Assembly: GCA_030751095.1 (NCBI GenBank)
Contig: JASMGX010000004.1
Coordinates: 1-47,671, forward strand
Source of the DNA: Pirellulales bacterium
Lineage (GTDB): Bacteria; Planctomycetota; Planctomycetia; Pirellulales; UBA7805
Length of the DNA: 47,671 bases
Direction: 5' to 3'
Shown in pieces: positions 4,950 to 47,671 of this stretch; position 1 is the first letter of the stretch, and each line of letters opens with the position of its first letter. Below the pieces are notes generated by a model. It was not told where the DNA came from. It made no database searches and worked only from the letters and a program-made list of their open reading frames with translations. Position numbers and translations under genes: made by a program.

Positions 4950-4984
4950 CTGATCTGGCAGCCAAGAGCGGTCTGCCAATCGAT

Positions 4985-8780: not shown

Positions 8781-8795
8781 ATGGGGCGAGACTCG

Positions 8796-10090: not shown

Positions 10091-10120
10091 GACTGGGGCG
10101 ACTGATACGTCGCCCCAGTC
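10091..10120. other. Perfect inverted repeat (12-bp GC-rich stem, 6-nt loop)
   Basis: The sequence is GACTGGGGCGAC tgatac GTCGCCCCAGTC. It lies in the 566-bp gap between murE and murG. Neither strand has a flanking U-tract. Confidence 0.85.
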
Positions 10121-31721: not shown

Positions 31722-32776
31722 CGAATCGCTTCTCCGGGCGGCAACGTACGAAGCTCAATAGTCACAAGCTCTTCACCGCGACGGATGAGCAGGGGCAGCA
31801 ACTGTCCACGCTCGAATTTTTCACAGCGACTTTTGACATCCTTGATCGACTGGACCAAGGTGTCTCCGACAAACAAGATCAGGTCATCCTTTCGAAGCCC
31901 TGCCTCCGCTGCGGATGAGATGTCTCGCACCGAATCGATGTACGGGGGCGTGCTGTCGATGACATCCGGAACGAGCACGACTCCCAGTCCGGTAAGATCG
32001 ACCGGATGCCGCACAGGAATGGCGACCTCTTCGCGGGGCCTCTGCGGCTCTCCGGCAATGATCGCAGCCGTCGCGTCGCGAAGTGCCGCGATAGGCAACG
32101 CATAATTGAGCCAGGTATTGTCCTGGCGATTTCTCAATTCTTTGCCCAACATCCCGAGCAAAGTACCGTCAATCGTCGTCAGCGCTCCACCAGCAGCTCC
32201 AGGATTGTTGGTGAGCGCATCGGTCACATACACCCTGCCATTAAACTGGGTCTGAAACACTCCTTTACGAGCTTTCAGATAAGGTACGGCCGAAACCACT
32301 CCTCGCTGCACGCTTGTCGGCTCGTCCCCGGTGGCCACCGAGAAAAGATTACTAAAGGCGAGCACTCGGGTCCCCACATCTGCTTCGAGAGATTGCGATA
32401 GCTGAAAAAAAGGCAGATTCTCTTCATCGATTTTCAAAATGGCAATTTCCAGCCAGGGATCGACCCCTAAGATTTCTGCATCAAATCTTCGTCCGTCATT
32501 GAGCGTTACCGTTGGTGCATCCGTATCAAGAACGTAACTCCAAACGGTGAGAACATGTCCCTCGGAGGAAATGAGAAAACCGCTCTGATACGCCTCCAGG
32601 CCTCGAAAACCGCCCGCCCCGTAAATTTTAACGAGTTTTGGCTGGACGCGATCGATACTGCTTGCAAACGATGGCAATTTCCCCATGGCCATTGCCGACC
32701 GCATCACCGCCTCCGGCGGGCTTAGAACTGCAAAGAGCAGACAGACGAGGGTAAAGAATCGGGACGAGAGGTTCAT
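31718..32776 (-). CDS. HtrA-like pseudo-protease with a PDZ-like domain (triad replaced)
   Basis: The signal peptide is MNLSSRFFTLVCLLFAVLS. The triad positions read GHVLTVWSYV (His to Ser), WLEIAILKI (Asp to Glu) and DALTNNPGAAGGALTT (Ser to Ala). A PDZ-like segment is GLRKDDLILFVGD. ATGA overlaps are present at both ends. Confidence 0.85.
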   Translation of the reverse strand: MNLSSRFFTLVCLLFAVLSPPEAVMRSAMAMGKLPSFASSIDRVQPKLVKIYGAGGFRGLEAYQSGFLISSEGHVLTVWSYVLDTDAPTVTLNDGRRFDAEILGVDPWLEIAILKIDEENLPFFQLSQSLEADVGTRVLAFSNLFSVATGDEPTSVQRGVVSAVPYLKARKGVFQTQFNGRVYVTDALTNNPGAAGGALTTIDGTLLGMLGKELRNRQDNTWLNYALPIAALRDATAAIIAGEPQRPREEVAIPVRHPVDLTGLGVVLVPDVIDSTPPYIDSVRDISSAAEAGLRKDDLILFVGDTLVQSIKDVKSRCEKFERGQLLPLLIRRGEELVTIELRTLPPGEAIR

Positions 32777-34542
32777 TCTTTTTCCGCTTCTTTAAATGCA
32801 AACGATGAAATACGAAAGACGCCGTAGCGCCGCATCGCATAGAGAACCTCAAAGCGATGTGGCAAAGACAAACCATCGACTTCACGATAATCACCGAAGT
32901 ATATTTCACACGGATCGACGCCATCGTCGGGAAACATCTCGAGGGCCAGAAGTTGCCCGCTGTCGGGATCGAACATGAAATGGACTTCGACACCCGCATG
33001 CATCCCTATCAACAGATCAACCTGGTGCGCGTGCCCATGCAGGGGTACCGTTCCGATGTATTCCACTTTCCCAAAATCATCGACGCCTCCTAGAAAGAGT
33101 CGTTGCCAGAGATGCAGCGCCAGCAGCAGCCCCCCGGTTGCGGGCGGGTCAAGAACCTCACTCAACTCGTCGGTAAAATCTGCTCGACCTTGATAAAACG
33201 GTAATTCGGCCGACCCCACCTTCGGACCCAATACGATCCGCATCGGTCCCTCACCGACGTCCGATTGAATATCTCCGGTAAGAACCCAACTGTCCTTTTG
33301 CTCGTGCGGGTCCCAACCGCGACGGACCGCATCGGCAAGCCGTTGGATGTGACGACGATTGAAGTAATAGTTGGCAAAACCCTTCTTCTGCTCATAATGC
33401 TGCTTCACAACAGCAGGCGCCTTTTTTAGCTTGTCAATGGATTTGTTCGGATGTTTTGGAGGGGGCGTTTTCTGATCCTTTTTAGGTCGCCGGCCATCCG
33501 GTCGTCGTGGCGGAGCACCCGGTTTTCCTGAAATTTTTTCTGCCAACTCACCCGCGCCGTGCACACCACCGAGTCGCACGAGCACTTCATACATTTCACC
33601 ATCTCGACGATAGACCAAGGGAACCCGCCAAAGCCGCGGAAGTGTACCGAGCACGTTTTTCAGAGCATTGACACTTCGAATTGGACGGCCTGCCAACTTG
33701 ACGACCTCATCATCGAGACGGAGTCCCCGCCGATAGGCGTCGCTATTTTCAAGAATATCGCTCACAACAACACGGCCTTCCTCGTCACTGGCAACAACCG
33801 CACCGAGTGTTGCGTGATCTACAATCCGCCCACTACGCAAATAGCCGAGAAAGTTTTTGATCTGATTGATCGAAATGGCATATCCAACACCTACATTTAC
33901 CCGTCCTCTCTTTTCAAAAGAGCCGCGGCCATTGATACCGATCAACGTACCACGACCATCAAAAAGAGGGCCTCCGGAATTCCCCGGATTAATCGCCGCA
34001 TCTGTCTGCAGACAATCGGTATACTCCAACAGCGTCCCGGCGGGATATTGGTAACGATGCACTCCGGAAATAATGCCATAAGAGACACTCGGTACAAAGT
34101 CGGTCGCCAGCAAGAATGGATTGCCAATGACATAGACCCAATCGCCTGCGCGGACCTTGTCACTATCACCCAGTGTGGCAGCAGGGAAATCATCGCGACC
34201 AAATAATTTGATCAGTGCGACATCGCCTGTGGGATCCACGCCGACAAGCACCGCATCGTAAAGTTTGCCATCGTTCATGCCGCACTTCATCGCAGCACCC
34301 GATGGCGCCGTCACGTGAAAATTTGTGAGGGCATATCCGTCCGGAGAAATGATGACTCCAGAACCGCCGCCACCACCATCGGGACCGAATACTGCAAGAG
34401 TGGAATCGGATGCCGCAGCGACAACGGCAACCCGCGCTGCCTGCGCACCAAGAACAGCGGCCGGCACCTCTGCGGAAAGCACCTCTGTAGCTGCTACCAA
34501 CAGCCATATCCCAACATTCCACATGAGGATGGGGCGATTCAT
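32773..34542 (-). CDS. HtrA-family serine protease (intact triad) with a PDZ-like domain and a ~240-aa C-terminal extension of unknown type
   Basis: The signal peptide is MNRPILMWNVGIWLLVAATEVLSA. The triad context is GSGVIISPDGYALTNFHV, DVALIKL and TDAAINPGNSGGPLFDGRGTLIGING. A PDZ-like segment is GLRLDDEVVKLAG, followed by a basic Pro-rich linker and then an unrecognised domain. Confidence 0.9.
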   Translation of the reverse strand: MNRPILMWNVGIWLLVAATEVLSAEVPAAVLGAQAARVAVVAAASDSTLAVFGPDGGGGGSGVIISPDGYALTNFHVTAPSGAAMKCGMNDGKLYDAVLVGVDPTGDVALIKLFGRDDFPAATLGDSDKVRAGDWVYVIGNPFLLATDFVPSVSYGIISGVHRYQYPAGTLLEYTDCLQTDAAINPGNSGGPLFDGRGTLIGINGRGSFEKRGRVNVGVGYAISINQIKNFLGYLRSGRIVDHATLGAVVASDEEGRVVVSDILENSDAYRRGLRLDDEVVKLAGRPIRSVNALKNVLGTLPRLWRVPLVYRRDGEMYEVLVRLGGVHGAGELAEKISGKPGAPPRRPDGRRPKKDQKTPPPKHPNKSIDKLKKAPAVVKQHYEQKKGFANYYFNRRHIQRLADAVRRGWDPHEQKDSWVLTGDIQSDVGEGPMRIVLGPKVGSAELPFYQGRADFTDELSEVLDPPATGGLLLALHLWQRLFLGGVDDFGKVEYIGTVPLHGHAHQVDLLIGMHAGVEVHFMFDPDSGQLLALEMFPDDGVDPCEIYFGDYREVDGLSLPHRFEVLYAMRRYGVFRISSFAFKEAEKE

Positions 34543-35774
34543 TTGATGAGCCTGGCGTTACAAAGGTTGAGATGGTCGCCCACATCCTGATTTTCGCCGT
34601 AATCCACGAACAATTCCAGCAGACGAACGCCCGTGAGATCGACCGAGATGTCGCGCGGTCCGTCACGGCCACTCACCTCTGTGGCAAATAACTGTTCGCG
34701 ATCACCATAGATAACAAGCCGCACATGTCCCGATTGACGGTTCGCCGCATCAATTCCAGCGCGAGCGCGAAAATACCGAACACCCACCGGCAAATCGTAG
34801 GCGATCCGCGTTCGACTGTGCAGCGAAATTCCTCGATCGTACGACTCGATGCTCGCAGCGGCACCACTACCGCTGGCAATTCGCAACTGGCCGTTATCGT
34901 ATCGGGCCCGCCGAAGCGATAGAGCGCGATCTTTTTTAGGTCGGTAAAATCGCTCCAACAGATTTCCGAGCCCCTGCAATTCAATATAGGGTGTCCATGC
35001 GACAGAGACCGGCTCCAGTTGAGACAAATAGACGATTTTTTCGGATGAGAAATCAAGTTTCTTGATCTGGTTGTAGCGATACTGCACCGAAATCCCGCAT
35101 GGAGTCTGCACCCGTATCTCTTCTGGTCCCGCGGAAAACTCGGCCACCTCGAGAAGCGATCCATCGACCGCCATCAACTGCATGATCGCCGGTCGTTGTT
35201 CAGGCCCTCTGCGGTGGCCATAGAGGATGCCTGCAAGCTTGCCGATTCCGACAGGGATGACCTCTCCATCGAGCTCAAATTCGACTGTCTGTTGATTGAC
35301 CTTCTCAATGATGCCATCGAGGTAGTCGAGCTTATCCTGTCTGCGGATTGCAATCCGGTCTGTCCGGTCACCCTCCAGACGGATTCGGTCCCAGGCAGCG
35401 GTCTGTGCAGCATTGTGTTTTCCGAATCGAACGGCACGGACCGTGCGAAGCGGCACATCCAACGCACGACCGTTGGTGAACCGGATGCGGGCATCGTCAC
35501 CAGATGTTTCGTAAAAAGTCGTTGCCAGCCGGGAACCATCGACCAGTCGCAGCCAAGCGGTCGCAGGGTTCGTTGGAATCTTTTCGTCGGCAGAAAACTC
35601 GATGTTCTGCAGTTCCGACAACGGCATCTCGCGCAGGCCCTCTTCTGTCTCTAAGGCAACGATTCCATCGCGAATCGAAACGAGGCTGCCATGGGCCACG
35701 GCACCGTCCATCGATTGCACACTGAGCGTTGGGGCTACAGCGGCAAAAATCAACATGGACAAAGATGCAATCAT
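34539..35774 (-). CDS. Secreted protein with a C-terminal NPCBM/NEW2-like domain
   Basis: The signal peptide is MIASLSMLIFAAVAPTLSVQS. The C-terminus ...GISLHSRTRIAYDLPVGVRYFRARAGIDAANRQSGHVRLVIYGDREQLFATEVSGRDGPRDISVDLTGVRLLELFVDYGENQDVGDHLNLCNARL resembles the NPCBM carbohydrate-binding-module layout. Confidence 0.75.
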   Translation of the reverse strand: MIASLSMLIFAAVAPTLSVQSMDGAVAHGSLVSIRDGIVALETEEGLREMPLSELQNIEFSADEKIPTNPATAWLRLVDGSRLATTFYETSGDDARIRFTNGRALDVPLRTVRAVRFGKHNAAQTAAWDRIRLEGDRTDRIAIRRQDKLDYLDGIIEKVNQQTVEFELDGEVIPVGIGKLAGILYGHRRGPEQRPAIMQLMAVDGSLLEVAEFSAGPEEIRVQTPCGISVQYRYNQIKKLDFSSEKIVYLSQLEPVSVAWTPYIELQGLGNLLERFYRPKKDRALSLRRARYDNGQLRIASGSGAAASIESYDRGISLHSRTRIAYDLPVGVRYFRARAGIDAANRQSGHVRLVIYGDREQLFATEVSGRDGPRDISVDLTGVRLLELFVDYGENQDVGDHLNLCNARLIK

Positions 35775-35795
35775 GAAAACACTTGTAGCAAAATA

Positions 35796-36836
35796 CTACT
35801 TCCTTTCTTTTGCCAACTCACGAAAATATTCCTCAATCACCTCCCGATAATGAGCGGGAAAATCGCGACTGATCTGCTGCATCGCCTCCTCGCGCTCTTT
35901 GGGAGGCAAGTCGCCCCAGTTGGCCGATTTGCCAAGATCGCGTTTTTGGACCTCTCCGCGGCCTTTCCCCCCCGCAGGAAGACTCTCCTGCATCGGCGCG
36001 GGAGATTGTCCGCCACCAAAAGCGACTTCGCTGCTCTGCGACTGTTTTTTCTCTTCCTCTTTGATCAATGTATCGAGCATCCGAATCACTTCATCTTCTT
36101 TCTCCTGCACACGCTCACCCGCTTGACCGTGACTGAGTCGCTGCTTTATATCTTTCATTCGTCGCGATATATCATCCAGAGAACCATCCTTTAATTGCAT
36201 CAGATCGCGTCGCATCAATCTCGCGAGAACTCGATAACGCTCTGGAAGATCACTTTCATGTTCCAGTAGGCGGTTGAGCTGAAAGAGTCCCTTCTTCGTC
36301 TCGATGGAGTGGTGATGAAGAACTCCCTGGTAAAACAAGAGTGCTGTCGGATCCAAGACATCGTCCGGCCCAAGGTCTTCGAGTTGCTGCTGCGCCTCGT
36401 CAAAGTATTGTGCCTGAGCAAGACTTCGCCCGAGAAGGAGACGAAGATTATTTCGGACAAGTGGTGCGATCTGCTCTCCATCGAGCCAGGTGCCAAGCGC
36501 CACCGTTTCCGGCGTTGCGCCTCGTCGACAGCTGACGATGAGCGACTCCGCTCGCCGATCGGCGAGTAGAATGATCGCCGCGACAGAATCAAGATCGCCT
36601 CGTTTGTCTCCGGGATCCACGTCGATCGACCAGAGACGGTCGACCTTACGACGTACTTCTACCGACACCTTCCGCTGTTGCAGCCATCGGTTCAGGCTCT
36701 GTTTGATCGCGGCGTCCGAAGGGATCCGCCATGTTGGCGTTTTTTCAGACGCCCCAAGGGTGATCCGGCTCTGGCATGCAATGAGCATAAACCATGAAAC
36801 AATCACCAACACATTAAAGACCGTTTTTGTTTTCAT
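35796..36836 (-). CDS. Hypothetical lipoprotein (helical, TPR-like middle, charged C-terminus)
   Basis: The ATG at 36836 gives MKTKTVFNVLVIVSWFMLIAC (lipobox-like). An upstream TTG at 36866 would overlap the preceding stop (TTGA). The C-terminus reads WGDLPPKEREEAMQQISRDFPAHYREVIEEYFRELAKERK. I recognise no family. Confidence 0.7.
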   Translation of the reverse strand: MKTKTVFNVLVIVSWFMLIACQSRITLGASEKTPTWRIPSDAAIKQSLNRWLQQRKVSVEVRRKVDRLWSIDVDPGDKRGDLDSVAAIILLADRRAESLIVSCRRGATPETVALGTWLDGEQIAPLVRNNLRLLLGRSLAQAQYFDEAQQQLEDLGPDDVLDPTALLFYQGVLHHHSIETKKGLFQLNRLLEHESDLPERYRVLARLMRRDLMQLKDGSLDDISRRMKDIKQRLSHGQAGERVQEKEDEVIRMLDTLIKEEEKKQSQSSEVAFGGGQSPAPMQESLPAGGKGRGEVQKRDLGKSANWGDLPPKEREEAMQQISRDFPAHYREVIEEYFRELAKERK

Positions 36837-36862
36837 GTCATTATCCGAAGCAGCACCAGCGT

Positions 36863-38536
36863 TCAACGATTTTTTCCCTGCACAATATCCCGTGAGATTA
36901 TTTCGATCCGTTCCTGCCGCTCGGCCAATCGATATAATTGAGACAGCAATTTCTCAAAGGACTCGCCATCACGTTCGAGCATCTCTTGATAGATTGCCGT
37001 CCGTCGATTTACGCGGATCTGCAACGCCCGGATCATCTTCAATTCTGCCAAATTATCCACCAGGGGTGGATCGGTCGGCTGTCCACCAGCACCAGACGGT
37101 GATGCGCGACGGGCCTGCTGCTCGCGCTGCGCCTTTTTTAATGCCGCAATAACATCCTCCAGCGCGTCGAGAATATCCTCTTCGATCTGCTGCGTCAATT
37201 TTCCGGTCTTGCCCCCATCGAGTCGGACCATGACTATTTCCATGTCTTCGCGAATTTGCAAAGCTGCCTCCGGAAGCGCCACTGCCGTGGCATCTTCGCG
37301 AAACAGCACCATGACTGTATCGACCAGAGCAATGATTTTCGCTTCATTCCCACTGAGCCGACTCGCTTCAATCTCATAGGCCCGATTTCGATCGGATGGC
37401 GGCGTCTGGTCGAGTACAACTGTCGCATCATACACTTTCTTCTGCATCTTCAGCATCTTTCGAAATCGTCCCTCGAGCATGGCCAGCATGCGTTCGACCT
37501 CTTCTTCGCGAAGCTGCCGCAAAATCCGCTCGAGTTCCGCCTTGGCCTTTTCCAGTGCGGCGATCGCCGCCTCCTGATCGTCGATTGCATCACGACGCTT
37601 TGCTTTTTCAAGATTGCTCTCCGCGGCCCGCATTCGCCTGCGGGCCTCTTCGAGTTGCTCACGAGGGAGAAACGCGCCTCGGTCTTGCGATTCTTTACCC
37701 GATTCTTTACCCGATTCTTTACCCGACTCCCCGCCCGACTCCTTGCCCGACTCCTTGCCCGACTCCTTGCCCGACTCCTTGCCCGACTCTTTGCCCGACT
37801 CTTTGCCCGACTCTTTGCCCGACTCTTTGCCCGACTCCTTGCCCGACTCTTTGCCCGACTCCTTGCCCGACTCTTTACCCGACTCTTTGCCCGATTGCTT
37901 CGAGCGACCGGGCGACTCCTCATGTTTTTTCATCTTCTGCACAATCGACTCGGTGCGTTCGGCCAGCTTGCCCTGCTCGGGGGCCAACTCTGCTTCCGGT
38001 CCCACACGCTCGGCCTGTCCCTGCAGGCCTTTCTGCATTTTGATCACTCGATTGATCTCTTTGATGTACTGACGAACCCGTTGTTTTTGAGAATTATTCG
38101 TCCTTTCACGATTCTCTGTAAGCAACAACGTGAGCAGTGCCGAAAGTTGTTCCTCGACCAACTGCTGTTTGTCAATTGCCTCATCGACTTCTCGGATGAG
38201 CAACGAGTCCCGATCCAACATCTCAATGAGTTGCCGGAACTCACTGGCAGTATCCTCGCGATTGATTAGCTCGACTGCTTTTTCCATAACCGCGGCGCGG
38301 GCAGGATCCGTCTCTCTAAGAAAATTAGCCAGGTCTGTCAGATTTTTCTTAAATCGACTGAAGGTGTCCGCCACCTTAGCCTGCTCGATGAGCAACCGAT
38401 CCGCATGGACTTGGCGTTCCGAGGCAGCAGAGGGGGGCGTATCCTCTGCCATCCCGAATGCAGTCAGACAAACCAACAGCATGCTGGCAACAGTACAACG
38501 ACACATTGCTGCAATCACCACCAATCTCTCTCCCAA
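36863..38536 (-). CDS. Secreted coiled-coil protein with a (GKES)17 low-complexity linker
   Basis: The signal-like N-terminus is MCRCTVASMLLVCLTAFGMA (ATG 38506) or starts from the TTG at 38536. Long heptad-like charged helices lie on both sides of SGKESGKES...GGES...GKES. Confidence 0.8.
   Translation of the reverse strand: MGERLVVIAAMCRCTVASMLLVCLTAFGMAEDTPPSAASERQVHADRLLIEQAKVADTFSRFKKNLTDLANFLRETDPARAAVMEKAVELINREDTASEFRQLIEMLDRDSLLIREVDEAIDKQQLVEEQLSALLTLLLTENRERTNNSQKQRVRQYIKEINRVIKMQKGLQGQAERVGPEAELAPEQGKLAERTESIVQKMKKHEESPGRSKQSGKESGKESGKESGKESGKESGKESGKESGKESGKESGKESGKESGKESGKESGGESGKESGKESGKESQDRGAFLPREQLEEARRRMRAAESNLEKAKRRDAIDDQEAAIAALEKAKAELERILRQLREEEVERMLAMLEGRFRKMLKMQKKVYDATVVLDQTPPSDRNRAYEIEASRLSGNEAKIIALVDTVMVLFREDATAVALPEAALQIREDMEIVMVRLDGGKTGKLTQQIEEDILDALEDVIAALKKAQREQQARRASPSGAGGQPTDPPLVDNLAELKMIRALQIRVNRRTAIYQEMLERDGESFEKLLSQLYRLAERQERIEIISRDIVQGKNR
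37689..37892. repeat. In-frame 12-bp tandem repeat x17, encoding (GKES)n on the minus strand
   Basis: The plus-strand units occur in blocks: GATTCTTTACCC x3, GACTCCCCGCCC x1, GACTCCTTGCCC x4, GACTCTTTGCCC x4, then GACTCCTTGCCC, GACTCTTTGCCC, GACTCCTTGCCC, GACTCTTTACCC and GACTCTTTGCCC. Confidence 0.95.
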
Positions 38537-38591
38537 TGGCGCAGGAATCTGTTTTTAAGCCTCAGTCACTCGCAATCAATTATAGCCCTCT

Positions 38592-40919
38592 TTAGGGTCC
38601 ATCGAGCAGACCTTTTTTCAGTTGCTCTTTTAGCTGCTTTTCCAGCAATTGCCGTTGCTCCTGTGTCTGCTTCGACACCTGCTTATGGCCATGGATGATT
38701 TTGCGCAAATCCGCAAGCAATTCATTAAATTTCTGCAAGTCCAGCATATTCTTCAGCACATTTTCCAGCGCACGGATGATCTTCGAGAGCTGTTGCTGGC
38801 TTGATTCGATTTCGGCAAAGAGCGATTGTTGGTCCTCGAGAGCATGACGAAGCCGTTTTAAGTCGCGATCGAACTGTGAAAATTGTTGCTCCACAATTTG
38901 ATTCAGGGGAACCACAATACCACCGCCAATCCGTCGCTCCAACTCTTCGAAAAAGGCTACTTTGTTGTTTTTCAACTCTGCTAAGATTCGTTCAAATTCC
39001 TCCGCAACACTCGCGGTCTCGTGCTGCATTCGGTCGCTTGTCTGAATCGCCGTTTCGATCCGCAACAGACGGACCGAATCGGCACGCGTCAGGGCAGGGG
39101 AGTCGCCCCGGCTATTTTCGCTCTCACTCTCTGGCGCGTTTTCCTCCGTCTCGTTTTTTAGATCGGACGAGGAACGGGAAGTCTCTTCTGAATCCGAAAG
39201 CATCCTCCGGAAAGAATCCTCGGTGCGATGCAATTCCGTGAGGATTGCTTCGAATCGCCTCCGCAAAACACGCTCCCGTGTTTCCAGCAGAGCCCGCAAC
39301 TCACTTTCACTAACAACGCGCAAGCGAAAACGATCGCTCTTTCCTATTTGAAATTCGGGATCCAAGGAACAATTGTCCGCAGCAGCTATTTGGAGAGACA
39401 GTATTTGACCCGCATGCAGTTGCCCATCCGCCAATTCGAAAGCAAGATTCCGTGCTTCGTCCAATTGACCATTTTCCGGTAGCGAGAATTCCTGCTCCTG
39501 CGGTCCTGCCCCATCGATGGAAAACTCGATCCAGCTTTTTGAAATCCCATAATCGTCCTGTACCACGCCACGGATCGGCAAAGCGGCCGTCGGTGTAATG
39601 GCCTTGCCAATTCCTACCAGATCGACATCCACCTCTGGCTTTTCATCCGGCAAGATTCGCACCAATACTTGAATCGTCTTCTGATTGGTAACGCCATCTG
39701 TATCGACCAACTGAAAAGAGACTCGGGTGTCATCTCGCAACGATCCTAAGTCCAATTCGATCGCATGGGGATCATGCTCGTGGATCTCAATCGACTCCCA
39801 CGGCACTTCCGTCTCTTGAGTTGTTTTGCGAAAGGAAGCTTTTAAGAGTGGTTTACTGGATCGCGCAAGGATCCGGACACCCGTTCCCTCCGGAGCAGGC
39901 TTTGAAAGCCGGATCTGGGAGGTCGTCGCCTCTCGGCCCAGATATTGGGGATACTCATAATGCATACTGATCTCTGTAAGATCGGGACTTTCCACAGCCT
40001 CAATCAGCAGGCCATCCACTCGGTCACTCTTTGAAAAGAGCCCGCTACCTTTTGCGGTCACACTGAAGGGCACCGACGCTTGAATATCCGTAAATTGGTA
40101 CTCATAGAATTGGTGCGCATCGCGTCCCGGGATCGCCTGATTGAGCCTCGTCATGTTAGGTCGGTTAAAGCCCCCGCCATCGGCTTGGTAGGAAATCTCT
40201 ACGGATTGAGGAACCGACCAATTCAGATCCGCCATCGCCCGCACCGTGAGGCTGTCGCCTTTGGCCACTTTTACAGATCGGCGCCCGAGCGGATCGGGAG
40301 GAAACCCCTCGACATCAATTTTTGTCGCATGGGGCCACGCACTATCGCCTAACAACAAACTACGGTCAGCCCAGATACGGGCCGCGCCGGGTTGCCAGAG
40401 CACAAACACCGCAACGCTACCAAGGGCGGCAACAGCAATCGCGAAAGTCTGCAAGAGCGGTCGGAAGCTGAAGACCATTCGAACATTGGCGTCCGGTAGC
40501 AACTGAGCGACCTCCTCGCGCGTACTGGCCAGCATCCGTGGATCGTAATCGATATTTTCTTTGTCTCTTTCACTTAACTCGACTACCGTGACGAGACGTT
40601 CTCCCAATTGGTGATAGTGACGCTCCAACAGCAGAGCCAAACTCCGTTCTGAAAGCGGAATCAACAAGCGACTGGCTGCCACTCGATACACCACAACAGA
40701 CGCAATTGCGCAAAAGATCACCAGCAACAGTGTGCGAACAAACTGCGATGGCTCTACTGCCCAGTCGACGAAGAGGCTCATCCAAAAGAGGATTGCGAGC
40801 ACCGAGAGGAAGGCAGCGACTCCCTGTAAGAAAATATAGCCGCGTATCATCCAACGCAAACGATGCAGGTGATCGACCCACACTCTGGAAGGACGTGCTC
40901 TTTCGGATACCGTTGCCAT
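38592..40919 (-). CDS. DUF4175-like membrane protein (three N-terminal TM segments, beta-rich middle, coiled-coil C-terminus)
   Basis: The N-terminus is HLHRLRWMIRGYIFLQGVAAFLSVLAILFWMSLFVDWAV, with two further hydrophobic segments. The C-terminal ~200 aa are charged and heptad-like (…LKRLRHALEDQQSLFAEIESSQQQLSKIIRALENVLKNMLDLQKF…). The family name is tentative. Confidence 0.75.
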   Translation of the reverse strand: MATVSERARPSRVWVDHLHRLRWMIRGYIFLQGVAAFLSVLAILFWMSLFVDWAVEPSQFVRTLLLVIFCAIASVVVYRVAASRLLIPLSERSLALLLERHYHQLGERLVTVVELSERDKENIDYDPRMLASTREEVAQLLPDANVRMVFSFRPLLQTFAIAVAALGSVAVFVLWQPGAARIWADRSLLLGDSAWPHATKIDVEGFPPDPLGRRSVKVAKGDSLTVRAMADLNWSVPQSVEISYQADGGGFNRPNMTRLNQAIPGRDAHQFYEYQFTDIQASVPFSVTAKGSGLFSKSDRVDGLLIEAVESPDLTEISMHYEYPQYLGREATTSQIRLSKPAPEGTGVRILARSSKPLLKASFRKTTQETEVPWESIEIHEHDPHAIELDLGSLRDDTRVSFQLVDTDGVTNQKTIQVLVRILPDEKPEVDVDLVGIGKAITPTAALPIRGVVQDDYGISKSWIEFSIDGAGPQEQEFSLPENGQLDEARNLAFELADGQLHAGQILSLQIAAADNCSLDPEFQIGKSDRFRLRVVSESELRALLETRERVLRRRFEAILTELHRTEDSFRRMLSDSEETSRSSSDLKNETEENAPESESENSRGDSPALTRADSVRLLRIETAIQTSDRMQHETASVAEEFERILAELKNNKVAFFEELERRIGGGIVVPLNQIVEQQFSQFDRDLKRLRHALEDQQSLFAEIESSQQQLSKIIRALENVLKNMLDLQKFNELLADLRKIIHGHKQVSKQTQEQRQLLEKQLKEQLKKGLLDGP

Positions 40920-40955
40920 ACAATAGGCTCGCCGGAAAAAATCAATACGATAAAG

Positions 40956-43706
40956 TCAGGCCAACTTAAACATCCGTCTAAGCAGCCACTCAAAACACAA
41001 AACGCCACAGAGCAGGAACATCATCCACCGACTCCAGGCCGCTTCCCAAACGGGGTCAACATCTCCAGCCACAGGTGTCATGCGCGTCTGATCTTCCAAC
41101 AGAGCGACCAGTGGTGGATCGCCGGAGAGTCCGAGGACATCTTCAATCGAGGTTAAATAACGCCCGCCAGTACTCTCTGCCAATTGCTTTAATGCTTTTT
41201 TATTCTGCTGAGGATTCCTCTTCTCCCGGTCGGAAGTTGTCACCTTCACCACTTTGGACAGCGGACTATCGTCACTTTCCGGGGGCTGCAGTTGCAGGCG
41301 ATAATCTTGAACTTTTCCAGCCGTCCATTCGCCCCGGAAGGTCCCTTTTCGATGAGGATCTGCCTTGAGCACATACGGCACACCCTCTCCGTCGCGACCA
41401 AACACATACATCGTGACACTTTCGGCCTCATATGGGTTTCGCTGGGCATCTTTCAGCTGCGCTACGACCGGAATGATATCACCAACTTGATAATTTTCTT
41501 TTTCCAGCAGCAACACATCACCGCGGCCCGATCCGCGGTAGAGCCGACCGGTCGAAACATGCCGAATCAGCCGTGTGTAGAACTGTTCAAAATACGCTTC
41601 ATCCAATCGGCGAAGCCGCCACATCTCTCCACTCGCCTGATAAAAAACGCGACCTCGCCCATAAAACTGTCCGGCAAAGAAAATCGGGGACTGGCCGAGC
41701 GAATCGGCAAGTTCGTCCTGGTAGTGGGCGTAGACCGTCGCACCAAACTTCTTTCCCTTGACCGGTTGTCCGCCATAGATACCGCCAAACGCAGTCCATA
41801 TTTGCTGGCTGGCAACGGAATTATCATCCAATTGCAGAAAAGTCGCGTCAATCCCGTCTCGGGTAAAGGCCAAACTCCGCTGTTTGGAAGCGTGTTGTCC
41901 CCATTCTTCGGGAAATTCGAAGTCGTCATAAAAATGGACGGGATAGAGATCTCGCAGGTGTTGGTACTCGGGATCGTAGATCCAACTATTGACGACACTA
42001 CCGGCATGGACCGCACCGGGAACCAGAATCAGGCCTCCTGCCTCATCCCCCACCCACGTCTCAATCATCGCCACCCCGCCTGGCCCCAGTTGACTCCAGT
42101 CAGGATCGATCCCAACAAGGACATCGTATTCAAACAGCTCCTCACCCTCTGGAAATTTTTCCAGATACGATGCATTCTCACTACCCGCATGTTTTCTGCT
42201 CTGTAGCAGCACATCCAAATCAATGTGTTTTTTATCTCTCTCGAGCAGATTACGAAGAAACTGGAATTCACGACTTGGTCCACCCGCAAACAGGAGGACT
42301 CGTGTGCGTCGGGCAACCACATCGATATACAATCGTTGTTTGGTTTCATCACTACCTGCCCGGGCACCTTTGACTGCCACGCTCAGTTCAAAAGCATACC
42401 GCCCCGCTAGGTCAATACCGTCAACTTCGAAGAGTACCGGTACGACATCGTCATCATCCGCACCAAGCAGTACATCTGCCTCTTGTGGCACAACCACATC
42501 CTCCCCTTCGGCGTGCGTCTGCTCGTCACGGGAGAGTTGCTGGAGCGTAACGGTCGCTGTGCGACCTGCATATCCCTGGGATTTCAAATACGCCGTTATC
42601 ATAAACGGATCATTTTGGTAGGCGCGTGCAGGTGCGGAATAATCCGCCAGACGGACATATTCTGGTGCACTTGATTTTCCGAGCCCAACGGCAAAAACCG
42701 GCACCTGTGCCTCTTGCGCTTTTTCGATTGCCTCGGTGAGAGCAAGCCCTGCGGTCTGCTGTCCATCGCTCATAAGCAGAATGCCCGCAACGGGTGCGGT
42801 GCGGTTTTTGGCGAGAGCCGCATGGAGTGCCTGCCCCACCTTGGTATCCTCTCCCTGTGCGGTGAGTAGGGTCTGCCAGTCGACGAGGTCTGCTGCAAGC
42901 TTCTCTTGATCGCGATCTGGTTCTCTTTTCTCAGCAGAGCCAGGCTCATCGAGTGCCAGCAGCGTGCGGATACCGAACTTGGGACCAAACGCAAATGTCC
43001 CCGCCAGCAGCGCAAGTGCGATCAGTGCAAAGAGCCCCGCTGAAACGAACAGACCACGAGAAACAACGCCCGCTCTTGCTGGCCTGAGGAGAAACCATCC
43101 CGCCAGAACAATTGCCAGAAGGAGCATGCACCCGGCAAGCCCCAAGCGCCACCGAGCCGTCTGCACCGCTGCAGCGATGGCAGCAGTTTCCTCAGGGGCA
43201 TCCTTGGTAGCCGGCTCCCATTTGGGCAAGGATGCGAGCGGAGTCGGTTCCTCGTCCTTATCAAACCGATACACAACGACATCGTGTACCTTGCGCAAGT
43301 CAGAAAGTAACTTGCCATCGGTCAATTCACGAACCACTCGTTGCAGACGTCCCTCAGGGCCGATTCCAGTCGGCATCGTAATATCCTGCTCACCCATACT
43401 CTGGCTCGTATCGACGAGCAGGAGCACTCTGGAATTGTCCACCACATCCCGCGTAGCCCGCCATTGCGGCTGGAGGTAGACCGCCAGCAAACCAACAAGA
43501 GCCAGCATACGAAGCGCAATGAGTACAACCGCCCGACGAGAACCCAATTCAATACAATCAAGCAGATACATGCCAACAACGAACCAGGCAAGCAAAAGCA
43601 GAATTCCAGCGGGAAGCATCCAGTCCCAGGGCGAGGAGAGGTCGCGGCCGAATTCAAAACTTGTCCGCACTGTCGCTGCAGCCAGCATGGCACATTGTTC
43701 GCTCAT
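40956..43706 (-). CDS. Multi-TM von Willebrand factor A (vWA) domain protein
   Basis: The MIDAS motif is VLLLVDTSQSMGEQD (DxSxS). Several TM segments are visible (ILLLLAWFVVGMYLL, ALRMLALVGLLAVYL, LAGCMLLLAIVLAGWFLL, C-terminal MMFLLCGVLCFEWLL). A second vWA-like stretch reads GILLMSDGQQTAG...VPVFAVGLG. Confidence 0.85.
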   Translation of the reverse strand: MSEQCAMLAAATVRTSFEFGRDLSSPWDWMLPAGILLLLAWFVVGMYLLDCIELGSRRAVVLIALRMLALVGLLAVYLQPQWRATRDVVDNSRVLLLVDTSQSMGEQDITMPTGIGPEGRLQRVVRELTDGKLLSDLRKVHDVVVYRFDKDEEPTPLASLPKWEPATKDAPEETAAIAAAVQTARWRLGLAGCMLLLAIVLAGWFLLRPARAGVVSRGLFVSAGLFALIALALLAGTFAFGPKFGIRTLLALDEPGSAEKREPDRDQEKLAADLVDWQTLLTAQGEDTKVGQALHAALAKNRTAPVAGILLMSDGQQTAGLALTEAIEKAQEAQVPVFAVGLGKSSAPEYVRLADYSAPARAYQNDPFMITAYLKSQGYAGRTATVTLQQLSRDEQTHAEGEDVVVPQEADVLLGADDDDVVPVLFEVDGIDLAGRYAFELSVAVKGARAGSDETKQRLYIDVVARRTRVLLFAGGPSREFQFLRNLLERDKKHIDLDVLLQSRKHAGSENASYLEKFPEGEELFEYDVLVGIDPDWSQLGPGGVAMIETWVGDEAGGLILVPGAVHAGSVVNSWIYDPEYQHLRDLYPVHFYDDFEFPEEWGQHASKQRSLAFTRDGIDATFLQLDDNSVASQQIWTAFGGIYGGQPVKGKKFGATVYAHYQDELADSLGQSPIFFAGQFYGRGRVFYQASGEMWRLRRLDEAYFEQFYTRLIRHVSTGRLYRGSGRGDVLLLEKENYQVGDIIPVVAQLKDAQRNPYEAESVTMYVFGRDGEGVPYVLKADPHRKGTFRGEWTAGKVQDYRLQLQPPESDDSPLSKVVKVTTSDREKRNPQQNKKALKQLAESTGGRYLTSIEDVLGLSGDPPLVALLEDQTRMTPVAGDVDPVWEAAWSRWMMFLLCGVLCFEWLLRRMFKLA

Positions 43707-45976
43707 CGGCGGTGATCCTTCTTCTTTGCCCGGTGATAGCCCGCAAAATATGCGAGCAACTGTTCAACCACCAAGACACAGACAAGGATCAGGAAAAACC
43801 ACCATTGCTCAGCGAGCGGAAATCCCGCCTGCCGTGTCGATGGAACAAGCAAATCTTCGGCACGGAGATACTCGAAGGATACATCCTTGAGAATTTGGCG
43901 TAGTTGCCCCTGATCGAGTGTCTGCAAGTCGCTCTCCGAAAGGGCGGCATTGTACGCAAACCGCCGAACCTCAGAGCTGCCATCGATGGGACTCAGCAGT
44001 GCTTCATAGATGCCGGTCCGCAAGACCGTACCGTACTCGGCAACCTGTCGCTGCAGATCTGCCTCGCTTTGCGTAGCATGGACCTGCGTCAGATCCCCCT
44101 TCTGTTGTGGCTCCACCGTCGGAATAGTCGGTGCAATAAAACCGACGACAGGTTGGTACTCCCCCGTAGGCAGATCGACTCGCAACGGCTCGCCAACCTG
44201 TCGCTCGGGCCGAGCCACCTTGGCGGCACCCAAGTACACCTGGGTGTCGAGCGCCCAGAGCACAAAACTCGGATCGCTGCGGCCCCAGTTGTGCCAGAGA
44301 GGTGCCGCCGTCGAAAGGACCGCCAGCGTACGACCTGCACCGAAGGTTTTCTCGACCATCCAGGGATCGCCATTCCGGAGTTTGGCGATGACCGATACCG
44401 ACGCATCATCAGCAGCGTTCCAATGTTTTGCGGGGGCATAGTACCGCCGGATTGCAATGGACTGCAACCATGTATTGGACGAATCACCAAAGCTGCGAGA
44501 AAATATGGGGTGGTCCTTCTGCAACTGGACATCCGGCGCTTTGTCGAGTCGGTCCACCAACAGCGTCGCAGGAGAGGAAAGAGGAAGCGGAAACAAACCC
44601 TCACCATCGCGATAGAGCGCGTCATTGACAAACTGCCGGTGTAGCTGCGTCCCTGCAAAGAACACAACGCCACCGCCAGCGCGGACATAGTCCTCGAGAT
44701 TTTTTATTTCCTGCTGATCCAATTCAGAGATATTCAGCAGATAGATCGTATGGTACCGATCGAGATCTCCGCTCCGCAAAAAGGTCGACCGTTCGATCCG
44801 GGGCCGGATACCCGTTTTGACGCGTGCCGATGGAGCGAGTGCCAGCCGCAAAAAAATAGATTGATCCTCTCCGCCATCATCGATAATCAGGACCGGAACA
44901 TTTTCACTGACCTCCACAACAGACTGCCGTCGATTGTCGAGTTCGATCGCATCGGGAGGGAGAGATGCCGCAACGACATGTTCACCGGGACTGCTGAATG
45001 TTACATCAAAGGAACGGGTCACAGACTCTCCTGGTTCAATCCGCGCAATTTTAATGGAGCCAAGGGCGGCCATTTCGTGCAATTCTGCATTGGATGCTGC
45101 CGGAAGCGTTTGTTCGATCGCTAGAGGCACATTCGTGGCCGATGTGTCACTAAAATTGGTGACCTCCACGGCCATTCGCATCGAGATGCCTGCCACCTGC
45201 TGGCCCGGCACGGGCCCCAGGTGCGTTATCGCCAAATTTCCGTGCGCCGCATCGACACAGTGTACCAGTTGGATTTCGGACCCATTGCCGTTGAGGCGCT
45301 CAAGGACCTGGGCGATTGCCGGGGATTGCTGCCACTGTGCCGCCCGCAGATCGGAAACCAAATAGAGGATAGTACTCTCATCCGCTTCCGGTTTGACTCT
45401 CTTTTCGATCAACTCGAGCCCCTCGAGCGGCCCCGCCCCCAAAGCGGTCACTTCGAGTCGACCCGACAACTCGGACAATTTGTCTACCAGCGCATCTGCC
45501 GCAACTTGCCGTAGGATCTCCGGCGGTTTCCCCAAGGCGGCATCCGAAAACCTCAACAGCGTGACCTTCTGGCGCGACGATTCGCGAGAGGCACGACGGA
45601 TAATGTTTTCGACCACACTTTTGGCTCGAGAAAACGCGTTCGTGTTCGCCCATTGGTCTGCCATCGAACCGGTGTCGTCGAGCAGGATGACATGATGGAC
45701 ATTAGAGCCACCGAATAATCGGCTCCAATGGTCTTGCAATATCGGCCCGGCCAACATGAAAACAATCGCAGCGATCGCTATCATCCGCAACAACAGAAGA
45801 AGCAACTGTTTGATACGTACTGATTTTTCATTTTTTTTCTTGCTATCGAGCAAAAACTCCATTGCAGCCCAGGAAACGCGTCGATGTCGCAACAGGTTGA
45901 TCAGGTGGATGAGCACCGGTAGTGCAACCAACGGAAGCAGCCATACAAAAAACAGGGATGGAAATGTAAAAGTCAT
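43703..45976 (-). CDS. BatA-type (aerotolerance-regulator N-terminal) double-TM / vWA-like protein
   Basis: The N-terminus MTFTFPSLFFVWLLPLVALPVLIHLINLLRHRRVSWAAMEFL is typical of the BatA N-terminal domain. A second TM is LLLLLLRMIAIAAIVFMLAGPIL. A MIDAS-like motif is HHVILLDDTGSM. There is a C-terminal TM, and the stop overlaps the next start (ATGA). Confidence 0.85.
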   Translation of the reverse strand: MTFTFPSLFFVWLLPLVALPVLIHLINLLRHRRVSWAAMEFLLDSKKKNEKSVRIKQLLLLLLRMIAIAAIVFMLAGPILQDHWSRLFGGSNVHHVILLDDTGSMADQWANTNAFSRAKSVVENIIRRASRESSRQKVTLLRFSDAALGKPPEILRQVAADALVDKLSELSGRLEVTALGAGPLEGLELIEKRVKPEADESTILYLVSDLRAAQWQQSPAIAQVLERLNGNGSEIQLVHCVDAAHGNLAITHLGPVPGQQVAGISMRMAVEVTNFSDTSATNVPLAIEQTLPAASNAELHEMAALGSIKIARIEPGESVTRSFDVTFSSPGEHVVAASLPPDAIELDNRRQSVVEVSENVPVLIIDDGGEDQSIFLRLALAPSARVKTGIRPRIERSTFLRSGDLDRYHTIYLLNISELDQQEIKNLEDYVRAGGGVVFFAGTQLHRQFVNDALYRDGEGLFPLPLSSPATLLVDRLDKAPDVQLQKDHPIFSRSFGDSSNTWLQSIAIRRYYAPAKHWNAADDASVSVIAKLRNGDPWMVEKTFGAGRTLAVLSTAAPLWHNWGRSDPSFVLWALDTQVYLGAAKVARPERQVGEPLRVDLPTGEYQPVVGFIAPTIPTVEPQQKGDLTQVHATQSEADLQRQVAEYGTVLRTGIYEALLSPIDGSSEVRRFAYNAALSESDLQTLDQGQLRQILKDVSFEYLRAEDLLVPSTRQAGFPLAEQWWFFLILVCVLVVEQLLAYFAGYHRAKKKDHRR

Positions 45977-46037
45977 TCGTATTTCACGAAGTGAAAACCA
46001 ACGGGAAACAAAAATTCACACCGTCTGCTGTAGCCCA

Positions 46038-46940
46038 CTACTTTCTGTGGTGCATTGCCAGGCGGTTACTCAAAAAGGCCGCAAGAACAGCACTCAGAGG
46101 CTGGCTCGTTCGAATCAAATCGTAATCGCACATATTGCTGGTACAGCCGCGACGCATCTCGGACAAGAAATCCTGCAGCGCGTTGAGATAGCCATCTCGC
46201 AGCGAACGTGGATTGCAGTTAATCACTTGAGTATCCTCAAGTCCCTCAAAACGCGTCGCACCATTAAACGGGAAATCGAGTTCGTCATCATCCATCACAT
46301 GAAACACCATCACATCATGCCCCCGTTTGCGAAGCAGCTTCAGCCCCCGGATAATCCCCTCGCGATCTGCAAGCAGATCGGAAATAACCACCATCATTCC
46401 TCTTCGCGGATACTCCTCAGCGACCTGTCTGAGAATTTTATAGAGGTCGGTCTTATCTCGTGGATTTTCAACTTCCAATGCTTTTACAATGGCACCCAGG
46501 TGGTTTCGCTTACTGCGCGTGGGAACTTTGCTCCGGACATGTTCGTCAAAGGAAACACAGCCAACCGCATCCTGCTGTCGCAGCAGCATGTAGGCCAGAC
46601 TGGCAGCAACCGTACAACCGTAGTCGTATTTTGTCAGTGGACCTTCCCCGTATTGCATGCTCCCAGAGACATCCACCAACAGCGTTGTTCGCAGGTTTGT
46701 ATCTTCTTCAAACTGTTTGACATAAAAACGATCCTGCTTGGCCCAGACTTTCCAGTCGACATGGCGCAAATCGTCACCAGGAACATATTCGCGGTGCTGG
46801 AGAAATTCGACCGATTGACCAAAATGCGGACTGCGGTGGATACCTGAGAGGAACCCTTCCACAATATGACGTGCTCGCAGCACCAAACGGTCGATCCTCG
46901 CGACCACCTCAGGATGCAAATATTTCTTGGAATCGGGCAT
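46038..46940 (-). CDS. DUF58 (vWA-like) protein, the usual MoxR partner
   Basis: The supporting motifs are [51 protein letters not shown] and the MIDAS motif LLVDVSGSM. The start overlaps the 3' end of moxR by 32 nt. Confidence 0.92.
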
Positions 46941-47671
46941 GGCTCGTCAATTCATCTTCTTTTGCCGGTGTTTCCTCTACCAAACGACCAATGATATCGT
47001 CCTGCGAAACGCCTTCGCTCTCAGCGGTAAAATTCACCACCAAGCGGTGGCGCAACACGGGCTTGGCTAATGCCTGAATATCGTCCGTCGCAACATGGGT
47101 GCGACCGTGCATCAAAGCACGGGCCTTACCACCCAGAATTAAGTATTGAACAGCCCGGGGGCCGGCACCCCAACTGACTTGATCCGCGACAAACTCCGGC
47201 ACACCGACTTCTCCCACACGCGTTTGCCGTACGAGTGACAAAGCGTAGCGCACCACATGATCCGAAACTGGTACCTGACGGACCAGTTTCTGCAACTCGA
47301 GAATTTCGGCAGCAGAGAGGGCGGGCACGATCTGGTCCTCCAGCACGGAAGTCGTCCGACGGGCAATCTCGAATTCCTCGTCAAAATTCGGGTACTGCAC
47401 AAACACCTTAAACATGAATCGATCTTGCTGTGCCTCCGGAAGCGGATAGGTCCCTTCCTGCTCAATCGGATTTTGTGTCGCAAGGACAAAAAACGGATCG
47501 GACAGCTTATGCTGTACCCGTCCGATCGATACCTGTCGCTCCTGCATTGCCTCCAAAAGTGCCGCCTGGGTCTTTGGCGGGGTACGGTTGATTTCATCGG
47601 CCAGAACCACATGAGAAAACAGCGGGCCTTCCATGAATCGAACCTCACGAGCACCGGTACTCTTATTTTCT
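46909..47671 (-). CDS. MoxR-family AAA+ ATPase (5' end lies outside the window)
   Basis: The frame is open to the right edge (…[18 protein letters not shown]…). The Walker B/sensor region is [31 protein letters not shown]...[28 protein letters not shown]. Confidence 0.93.

Follow-up and report, generated by a model that had tools for sequence, protein, structure and literature searches.

The 47,671-nucleotide (nt) stretch of DNA analysed here, which we call the window, comes from a Pirellulales bacterium, an uncultured marine planctomycete whose locus is present in many seawater and vent metagenomes. Eleven consecutive, tightly packed open reading frames (ORFs) on the minus strand fill positions 30582-47671. 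Read in the direction of the genes, they encode the C-terminal part of a MoxR ATPase, a DUF58 protein, a BatA-type protein, a second membrane protein with a vWA domain, two proteins that we assign to the DUF4175 family, a helical protein of 346 amino acids (aa), a protein with an NPCBM domain, and three HtrA-like proteins. Judged by its domains and its conserved gene order, the cluster is a variant of the Bat/Cmd-type MoxR operon with new fixed partners, for which we infer a mechanism at the cell envelope. The array of eleven same-strand genes had earlier been laid out from the letters of the sequence and a list of ORFs (the sequence-only reading), and all of the coordinates, overlaps and gaps given there were reproduced.

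Domains were assigned with Pfam and NCBIfam; the Pfam scan took in 10 of the 11 array proteins, the 379-aa HtrA-like protein being left out. Related loci were collected using the family of the 346-aa protein, which gave 80 species-level loci from at least 308 that matched, and the eleven array proteins were located in these loci by tblastn. Counts of genes downstream of the 346-aa gene are taken from 60 loci with at least 6 kb of flanking sequence, and counts of genes upstream of it from 43 loci with at least 9.5 kb.

MoxR and its vWA partners

The first gene of the array, moxR, lies at 46909-47671, where the window end cuts it so that only its 3' part, encoding the C-terminal 253 aa, is present. 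The partial protein matches AAA_3 (133 bits) and AAA_lid_2 (63 bits) in Pfam; a Walker motif string is readable in its translation, and the P-loop falls upstream of the window end. Its full-length ortholog in locus L001 scores 214.6 bits with AAA_3, versus 37.3 bits with the bpMoxR model PF20030. On these matches the window MoxR is a classical MRP-type MoxR AAA+ ATPase, predicted to be cytoplasmic. The DUF58 gene (46038-46940, 300 aa) overlaps moxR by 32 nt, and its product, which matches PF01882 with 172.9 bits and VWA_2 with 38 bits, has a vWA-like fold with the metal ion-dependent adhesion site (MIDAS) string DVSGS. It is the predicted cytoplasmic partner of MoxR, both proteins being placed in the cytoplasm because they are without a hydrophobic segment.

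The third gene (43703-45976), which follows the DUF58 gene after a gap of 61 nt, encodes a BatA-type protein of 757 aa with matches to PF07584 (BatA, 59.6 bits) and TIGR02226 (67.5 bits). Its VWA_2 score of 22.1 bits is under the 27-bit cutoff, and the string DDTGS is present. Hydropathy places an N-terminal pair of transmembrane segments (TMs) at residues 8-26 and 58-76 and a C-terminal TM at residues 727-745. Six lysine or arginine residues precede the second TM and six follow the C-terminal TM, from which, by the positive-inside rule, the protein is predicted to be N-out and loop-in with its large vWA domain in the periplasm. This topology agrees with that of Borrelia BB0173, whose BatA-type vWA domain is experimentally periplasmic (PMC5700661). 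A possible GATase1/ThuA-like domain follows the vWA domain of the 757-aa protein; the matches to GATase1_like, ThuA and DUF4159 are all sub-threshold.

The fourth gene (40956-43706) shares an ATGA overlap with the 757-aa gene and encodes a second vWA membrane protein, of 916 aa, that scores 31.5 bits with PF00092 (VWA) versus a cutoff of 23.8 bits and carries the string DTSQS. Its TMs, placed by hydropathy at residues 31-49, 60-78, approximately 190-210 and 218-236, form an N-terminal pair followed by a vWA domain that is broken by the two further TMs, and it stands in a BatB-like position; its large C-terminal part is predicted to be periplasmic. Four of the features that define a Bat/Cmd-type MoxR operon, namely an AAA_3 MoxR, an adjoining DUF58 protein, a BatA-N/vWA protein and a second vWA protein, are found here. 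The names MoxR, DUF58, BatA-N and vWA that the sequence-only reading had given to these domains are upheld by the Pfam and NCBIfam scores, and the three MIDAS-like strings that it had picked out are found in the translations.

Since this core is homologous to the Bacteroides Bat operon, the array might be read as an aerotolerance or redox-stress system that provides periplasmic reducing power or oxidative repair, with HtrA clearing oxidised periplasmic proteins. Mutants of Riemerella moxR and batA have oxidative- and heat-stress phenotypes (PMC11834572), as such a system would lead one to expect. However, no thioredoxin, cytochrome or DsbD-like domain was found in the array proteins by Pfam and NCBIfam scans, and a full bat deletion in Leptospira biflexa is without an oxidative-stress phenotype (PMC3557215). 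The carriers of the cluster, moreover, span the marine water column, sediment and an anaerobic reactor, and so have no obvious tie to oxygen regime. We regard a redox function as improbable.

A DUF4175-type protein divided between two genes

The next two genes encode proteins of 775 aa (38592-40919, 36 nt from the 916-aa gene) and 557 aa (36863-38536, with a TTG start, 55 nt from the 775-aa gene). Because of profile alignments to a longer protein (P0019, 1203 aa), a fusion of the two in one relative, and an unsplit form in Phycisphaerae, we take these proteins to be the N- and C-terminal parts of one split DUF4175-type protein. P0019 scores 47.5 bits with DUF4175 (PF13779), versus a cutoff of 27.3 bits. 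Residues 13-755 of the profile of the 775-aa family, the homologs of which are all planctomycetal, align to residues 4-740 of P0019 (hhalign probability 99.8%, E 1e-27), and residues 45-549 of a profile made from 58 orthologs of the 557-aa protein align to residues 760-1194 (probability 97.2%, E 4.5e-11). The latter alignment agrees with the Pfam match of the 557-aa protein to positions 538-751 of the DUF4175 profile, which at 23.2 bits is under the 27.3-bit cutoff. BLASTP of the 557-aa protein against P0019 was uninformative, and the relationship is seen only with the family profile. Homologs of the two proteins are fused in one 1284-aa ORF in a Pirellulales metagenome-assembled genome (L061), and Phycisphaerae have the equivalent DUF4175 protein in one piece of 1158-1159 aa.

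The AlphaFold2 model of the 775-aa protein (pLDDT, a per-residue confidence score, of 83) consists of a TM hairpin, a third TM, tandem beta-sandwich domains at approximately residues 200-535 and a coiled coil at residues 538-773 (approximately 235 aa). Its TMs are also given by hydropathy, and the three TMs and coiled-coil tail that the sequence-only reading ascribed to the protein are thus borne out by both. The segment at residues 83-157 (approximately 75 aa) is predicted from the model and hydropathy to be cytoplasmic and the large part of the protein periplasmic. A Foldseek search with the model returned generic Ig, FnIII and MG-domain matches only. The 557-aa protein has its own signal peptide or anchor, followed by a coiled-coil-rich region. 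It also contains a low-complexity (GKES)n linker, which is encoded by 17.2 copies of a 12-nt tandem repeat at 37688-37894 on the minus strand (Tandem Repeats Finder and translation); the homologs are poorly conserved at this linker, and its length may therefore vary between strains.

The gene for the 346-aa protein (35796-36836, ATG start) follows after a gap of 26 nt. Starting instead from a TTG at 36866 on the same strand, the protein would have 356 aa, and its gene would overlap the preceding stop codon as TTGA. The family to which the protein belongs has more than 600 close clusters, of which every taxon-labelled one is from Planctomycetota, and an exhaustive search finds 3275 representatives at E<=1e-3. 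It is without a Pfam model: Pfam and NCBIfam give nothing above cutoff, including at relaxed thresholds and in scans of further family members, as is also the case for the 775-aa protein, and the TPR matches are below cutoff. The AlphaFold2 model (pLDDT 79) is all-helical and TPR-like, and a fold search with it gave only weak TPR-type matches, with E values of at least 0.05. The C-terminal half of the family carries a nearly invariant module, WGDLPPKEREEA...FPAHYREVIEEYFRELA, and it is this half that is homologous to a protein of approximately 210 aa (209 aa) whose gene directly follows that of DUF4175 in Phycisphaerae (probability 97.7%). On this homology and its constant position the 346-aa protein, predicted to be secreted and TPR-like in its model, is a fixed partner of the DUF4175 component. 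As a separate observation, the short partner in Phycisphaerae (L009, 10382-11026) gives a PF20019 (VMAP-M20) match of 15.3 versus 27 bits over the conserved C-terminal module, which is too weak to use.

Two descriptions in the sequence-only reading have to be revised accordingly. It had treated the 775-, 557- and 346-aa proteins as three unassigned envelope proteins that extend the Bat core. The 775- and 346-aa proteins do indeed lack a direct family match, but the 775- and 557-aa proteins are placed by the profiles as DUF4175, so that the three form a DUF4175 component and its regular partner instead of an extension. It had also called the 346-aa protein a lipoprotein. The lipobox (LIAC) is there in the window protein, but among 80 orthologs just 7 share this feature and most carry an ordinary signal peptide; lipoprotein status is therefore at most a local trait.

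The NPCBM protein and the HtrA trio

A 21-nt spacer (35775-35795) separates the 346-aa gene from the gene of the NPCBM protein (34539-35774, 411 aa). The NPCBM domain (PF08305, 80 bits versus a cutoff of 23.9 bits) covers residues 285-409 of this predicted secreted protein, and its N-terminal region appears by eye to consist of several short beta-rich repeats. The three HtrA genes follow, each overlapping the gene before it by 4 nt, and encode proteins of 589 aa (32773-34542), 352 aa (31718-32776) and 379 aa (30582-31721). All three proteins have an N-terminal hydrophobic signal; signal sequences are predicted in the 557-, 346-, 411-, 589-, 352- and 379-aa proteins alike. Hydropathy, charge bias and the AlphaFold2 model of one protein combine to predict that all of the array proteins except MoxR and DUF58 face the periplasm.

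Catalytic positions in the three HtrA-like proteins were taken from alignments to the solved structures of DegP, DegQ/Do and DegS and to 55-65 orthologs per paralog. The 589-aa protein (HtrA589) has the triad H76-D107-S189, and H-D-S is kept in 65 of 65 orthologs. It matches Trypsin_2 with 114 bits and TIGR02037 with 208 bits and has a signal peptide, a protease domain and one PDZ domain, followed by a C-terminal extension of approximately 260 aa for which no PDB or Pfam match was found. The 352-aa paralog retains the HtrA fold and a PDZ domain, with a Trypsin_2 match above cutoff and an alignment to TIGR02037, and has S80, E110 and A195 at the triad positions (in its orthologs S in 63/64, E in 56/64 and A in 59/64). 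In the 379-aa paralog, which aligns to the DegS and DegP structures over the protease and one PDZ region, these positions are Y89, G120 and Y193; its orthologs have F or Y at the first, a variable residue at the second (M in 43/56) and Y at the third (56/56). This paralog is a short form, as it is in the closest relative (L056, 367 aa), and elsewhere it is approximately 650-700 aa long with two PDZ domains.

As far as catalytic residues can tell, the trio is one active HtrA, so predicted from its triad, and two conserved pseudoproteases. The "HtrA module" or protease complex of the sequence-only reading therefore holds for one H-D-S protease with a PDZ domain; none of the three catalytic residues survives in the other two. 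That two of the three are conserved pseudoenzymes argues for a specialised and not a general protease set. The window also contains, at 5793-7232 on the plus strand, the gene of a conventional DegP/DegQ-type HtrA (Trypsin_2 119 bits, plus PDZ), so that the trio comes on top of an enzyme of the housekeeping type.

Gene order in related loci

In 58 of the 60 loci with sufficient flank the 346-aa gene is followed on its own strand by the genes for NPCBM, HtrA589 and the 352-aa HtrA, arranged as in the window, and in 56 of the 60 by the third HtrA as well. Upstream of the 346-aa gene both DUF4175 halves are found in 43/43 loci, the homolog of the 916-aa vWA protein in 42/43 and that of BatA in 41/43. 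Protein identity of these loci to the window is merely 25-60%. Median intergenic distances, from longest-ORF calls, range from -25 to +80 nt. Metagenome contigs retrieved by way of the 775-aa family have the identical full order, from MoxR to the third HtrA. The co-occurrence of the downstream genes with the MoxR cluster is thus confirmed by synteny, and gene order supports the view that the 11-gene stretch behaves as one conserved unit.

The homologous cluster in Phycisphaerae runs in the order MoxR, DUF58, BatA, vWA, unsplit DUF4175, the 209-aa partner, an alpha/alpha-toroid protein and NPCBM, where it ends. The window NPCBM family aligns over its full length with the NPCBM protein of this cluster (hhalign probability 99.2%, E 7.8e-20), and a cut-off gene that follows the 346-aa homolog in locus L005 is the N-terminus of an NPCBM protein (probability 98.9%). 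The presence of NPCBM in a cluster that has no HtrA indicates that it belongs to the older MoxR/DUF4175 block. By this comparison the spacer at 35775-35795 is not a module border, and the sequence-only reading, which drew the border there and assigned NPCBM to the HtrA side, had misplaced it. The HtrA trio is by the same comparison a later addition, seen here only in Pirellulales-type loci.

Conserved adjacency could also be found between two or three independent neighbouring operons, a Bat/DUF4175 operon and an HtrA stress-protease operon, kept side by side by genomic inertia or by shared regulation under envelope stress. The Phycisphaerae cluster, which is homologous and has no HtrA, speaks for such independence, as do loci L020 and L030, in which no NPCBM or HtrA gene follows the 346-aa gene (the downstream neighbours in L020 are on the opposite strand). 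The gap between the 346-aa and NPCBM genes has a median of 50 nt and is longer than 100 nt in 29% of loci, enough to accommodate a promoter, and the available RNA coverage does not separate transcript from DNA. On the other hand, the order is kept in 58/60 loci at 25-60% identity, over which rearrangement should have parted unrelated operons. The NPCBM gene, which goes with the Bat/DUF4175 block, overlaps or abuts the start of HtrA589 (median -25 nt by longest-ORF calls; a 4-nt overlap in the window). A trio in which two of three members are conserved pseudoproteases is unlike a general stress-protease operon, and a conventional DegP/Q is present elsewhere in the window. Independent operons are, in our view, a doubtful explanation, although one that keeps appreciable weight.

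Transcription signals and RNA data

No terminator-like site was found at any junction of the array, including 35775-35795, and the counts of promoter-like and terminator-like sites were those of shuffled sequence. Intergenic folds at the junctions are unremarkable (z -1.4 to +0.9); that of the 21-nt spacer is weak, at -9.6 kcal/mol and z -1.4. Rfam gave no element at any junction. Parts of the locus are present in two vent metatranscriptomes, contigs of which cross the junctions 346/NPCBM (35688-35969), NPCBM/HtrA589, HtrA589/HtrA352 and 557/346. In view of their even, low coverage these contigs may derive from DNA, and the single transcription unit of the sequence-only reading is a conjecture.

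The toroid protein and other genes at the cluster borders

The toroid found in the Phycisphaerae cluster is a secreted alpha/alpha-toroid protein with a signal peptide, weak matches to SQHop_cyclase and Prenyltrans, and no thioester motif. The toroids of Phycisphaerae and Pirellulales are orthologous (33% identity, E 6e-51). Among 63 loci with enough flank downstream of the toroid gene, it lies directly upstream of moxR in 33, which are labelled Pirellulales, Gemmataceae, Brocadiaceae or Phycisphaerae. In Aeoliella straminimaris (L094), a cultured member of Pirellulales, the fetched flank shows toroid, MoxR, DUF58, BatA, vWA and DUF4175. The window ends inside moxR and so probably misses this prenyltransferase-like gene, the probable first gene of the array. 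In 6 of the 63 loci (including L150, L155, L156 and L159) the toroid gene directly precedes BatA, vWA and DUF4175; MoxR and DUF58 are missing from between them, from which it follows that the genes of the ATPase pair can lie at another site. In the other 24 the toroid gene is located elsewhere, and most of these are labelled Pirellulaceae (Rhodopirellula, Stieleria, Roseimaritima and related). Loci L114-L141, from Rhodopirellula, Stieleria, Roseimaritima, Allorhodopirellula and other Pirellulaceae, several of them cultured, have toroids of 51-62% identity that do not adjoin moxR or BatA. The cluster may be rearranged or dispersed in the best-studied Pirellulaceae.

A toroid of 615 aa, resembling squalene-hopene cyclases and prenyltransferases, is also encoded within the window, at 23268-25115 on the minus strand, and shares 28% identity (E 5e-26) with the toroid of the Phycisphaerae MoxR cluster. 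A 159-nt in-frame skip in this gene (24746 to 24906), seen in contigs of two metatranscriptome runs, suggests a population length variant of the protein. An alpha-2-macroglobulin-like system, composed of MG-type beta-sandwiches and a TED-like toroid, was considered and rejected: no CGEQ thioester motif is present in the toroids, and the resemblance is of a generic kind.

Giant PQQ beta-propeller proteins of 1439-1618 aa flank the cluster in L001 and L007. The toroid and PQQ flanking genes of the relatives lie at 1-2916 in L001 and at 4427-9972 and 17031-18179 in L007, and the toroid loci are L092-L171.

Large PQQ beta-propeller proteins near the cluster in these two loci bring to mind the MoxR-vWA ternary conflict (defence) systems described by Kaur, Burroughs, Iyer and Aravind, in which case HtrA or the pseudo-HtrAs would be effectors. 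Planctomycetes carry such systems (PMC7159879), and the MoxR orthologs give a secondary match to PF20030 bpMoxR. That match is overshadowed by the one to AAA_3, however (37.3 versus 214.6 bits in the L001 ortholog), and the vWA partners are membrane proteins of the DUF58 and BatA types, not vWA domains fused to VMAP or a beta-propeller as these systems require (PMC7159879); the one VMAP-type match is the sub-threshold one in L009. The components are conserved and colinear, without a variable effector region, and no mobile-element genes stand beside the cluster in the three loci for which full gene tables were read, the 80 loci having been checked for cluster genes only. A beta-propeller MoxR ternary conflict system, which we consider extremely improbable, is accordingly rejected on its AAA_3-type MoxR, its different vWA architecture and the lack of anything variable.

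Proposed mechanism

On balance we lean, with modest confidence, towards reading the array as the larger part of a conserved planctomycetal cluster for an envelope-spanning MoxR/vWA/DUF4175 system, to which Pirellulales have added a dedicated HtrA and two pseudoproteases. In such a system a MoxR hexamer, with the DUF58 protein as its vWA/MIDAS adaptor, would act on the cytoplasmic loops and tails of the 757-aa BatA protein and the 916-aa vWA protein and on the segment of approximately 75 aa in the N-terminal DUF4175 part. ATP-driven remodelling would then set the assembly or conformation of the periplasmic parts, that is, of two partner-binding MIDAS vWA domains and of the beta-sandwich stalk with its coiled coil. 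The secreted C-terminal DUF4175 part and the TPR-like 346-aa protein may prolong this coiled coil through the periplasm, and the NPCBM protein, perhaps together with the toroid, could anchor the assembly to a glycan (peptidoglycan or a sugar of the outer membrane). The active HtrA, which probably forms mixed oligomers with the pseudo-HtrAs and would gain from them PDZ and other binding surfaces, may degrade or process envelope proteins at this scaffold. The net role of the system would be quality control or assembly of envelope proteins, which agrees with the envelope and morphology defects of mutants in the related Rhizobium cmd operon, as cited in PMC5700661.

Several observations weigh against this reading. 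To our knowledge there is no Bat-type system with a demonstrated mechanism, and a cytoplasmic AAA+ ATPase would have to reach vWA domains in the periplasm. The widest median gaps in related loci, 80 nt between the vWA and 775-aa genes and 50 nt between the 346-aa and NPCBM genes, make internal promoters possible. The other 19 kb of the window have metatranscriptome coverage that is just as low and as flat, so that the contigs that cross junctions may stem from DNA carry-over. HtrA is absent from the Phycisphaerae cluster, and NPCBM and HtrA are both absent from this position in the Pirellulales loci L020 and L030, which means that HtrA is not indispensable to the core. Finally, deletion of bat in Leptospira biflexa gave no growth or morphology phenotype and left tolerance of oxidative stress unchanged (PMC3557215).

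The array may be carried a step further, to a trans-envelope, ATP-regulated machine for proteolysis or assembly, in which MoxR and DUF58 signal through the three-TM N-terminal DUF4175 part and the BatA and vWA membrane proteins to a periplasm-spanning coiled-coil scaffold that recruits and gates a hetero-oligomer of one HtrA and two pseudo-HtrAs. We hold this to be unlikely. If true, it would parallel the cytoplasmic AAA+ proteases across a membrane and would provide the first mechanistic function for the widespread Bat, Cmd and DUF4175 systems.

Other genes in the window

A gap of 164 nt separates the last gene of the array from an unrelated gene for a DUF4396 membrane protein (29365-30417, minus strand), which has a HEGQPS repeat tail encoded by seven copies of an 18-nt unit at 29522-29648. 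It is adjoined by the gene of a P-type ATPase with YHS and HMBD metal-binding domains (25646-28093, plus strand), and the two look like a copper-handling pair. The DUF4396 protein had no match in the 80 related loci; the ATPase was not searched for there. Housekeeping genes, among them a murG-like gene (Glyco_tran_28), a Mur ligase gene and ispG (GcpE), lie within 8796-12026 and 21488-22627 and are consistent with a chromosomal, non-mobile context.

Comparison with known systems

Bat/Cmd-type operons are very widespread, and in pathogens and symbionts they have been connected with tolerance of stress, with virulence and with the integrity of the envelope (PMC5700661, PMC3557215, PMC11834572). 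In the literature searched we found no description of a MoxR/Bat cluster joined to DUF4175, NPCBM, toroid or HtrA genes, nor of a split DUF4175 protein or a pair of pseudo-HtrAs. As fixed partners, a DUF4175-type component with TMs and a coiled coil, a protein of a glycan-binding type and, in one taxonomic order, a dedicated HtrA with two pseudoprotease paralogs narrow the hypothesis space for these operons to periplasmic protein handling at an envelope-spanning scaffold, and such fixed partners name concrete, testable interactions for what Bat/Cmd systems do. The analysis also assigns two previously unplaced families to DUF4175, defines a large Planctomycetota family of the 346-aa type that has no Pfam model, and documents conserved HtrA pseudoenzymes.

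The window array shares with the Bat and Cmd operons (cmdA-D, RL3499-RL3502 in Rhizobium leguminosarum) an AAA_3 MoxR followed by DUF58, a BatA-N protein of the TIGR02226 type and a second vWA membrane protein, with the core on one strand and its junctions short or overlapping. A possible counterpart of the TPR proteins BatC and BatE of Bacteroides comes further down, namely the 346-aa protein, whose model is all-helical and which has weak TPR-type fold matches (E at least 0.05) and sub-cutoff Pfam TPR matches. Unlike Bat, the array has no BatD (PF13584) in Pfam scans of 10 of its 11 proteins or in relaxed scans of cluster homologs, and its counterparts of BatA and BatB, at 757 and 916 aa, have two to three times the length. 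To the Bat/Cmd plan it adds a split DUF4175 protein, a TPR-like protein with a C-terminal module, an NPCBM protein, a toroid (in relatives) and the HtrA/pseudo-HtrA trio.

Like other DUF4175 proteins, the component described here has an N-terminal TM hairpin, a third TM and a long helical C-terminal region; unlike PF13779 proteins it is split in two genes, the second half having a signal of its own, and neither half reaches the gathering score. The sole experimental mention of DUF4175 that we found concerns the Acinetobacter division protein AdvA, whose N-terminal region is of DUF4175 and which occurs in a different context (PMC7481262).

MoxR-vWA-peptidase operons have been proposed to be membrane-proximal degradation systems (Zhang and Aravind 2012, PMC3495828). 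The MoxR-vWA-YebA operons among them resemble the window array in that an AAA+ remodeller, a DUF58/vWA adaptor and a peptidase at the membrane are genomically coupled. The peptidase there is a TGL cysteine peptidase facing the cytoplasm, whereas here it is a periplasmic HtrA serine protease with pseudoenzymes, and the coupling would have to cross the inner membrane. As in HtrA, DegP, DegQ and DegS (S1C), all three paralogs of the window have the protease fold, PDZ and a signal peptide, with the H-D-S triad in the 589-aa protein only. They differ from HtrA/DegP in that two paralogs are without catalytic residues, in the extension of approximately 260 aa on HtrA589, and in the fixed position of the trio downstream of MoxR/DUF4175.

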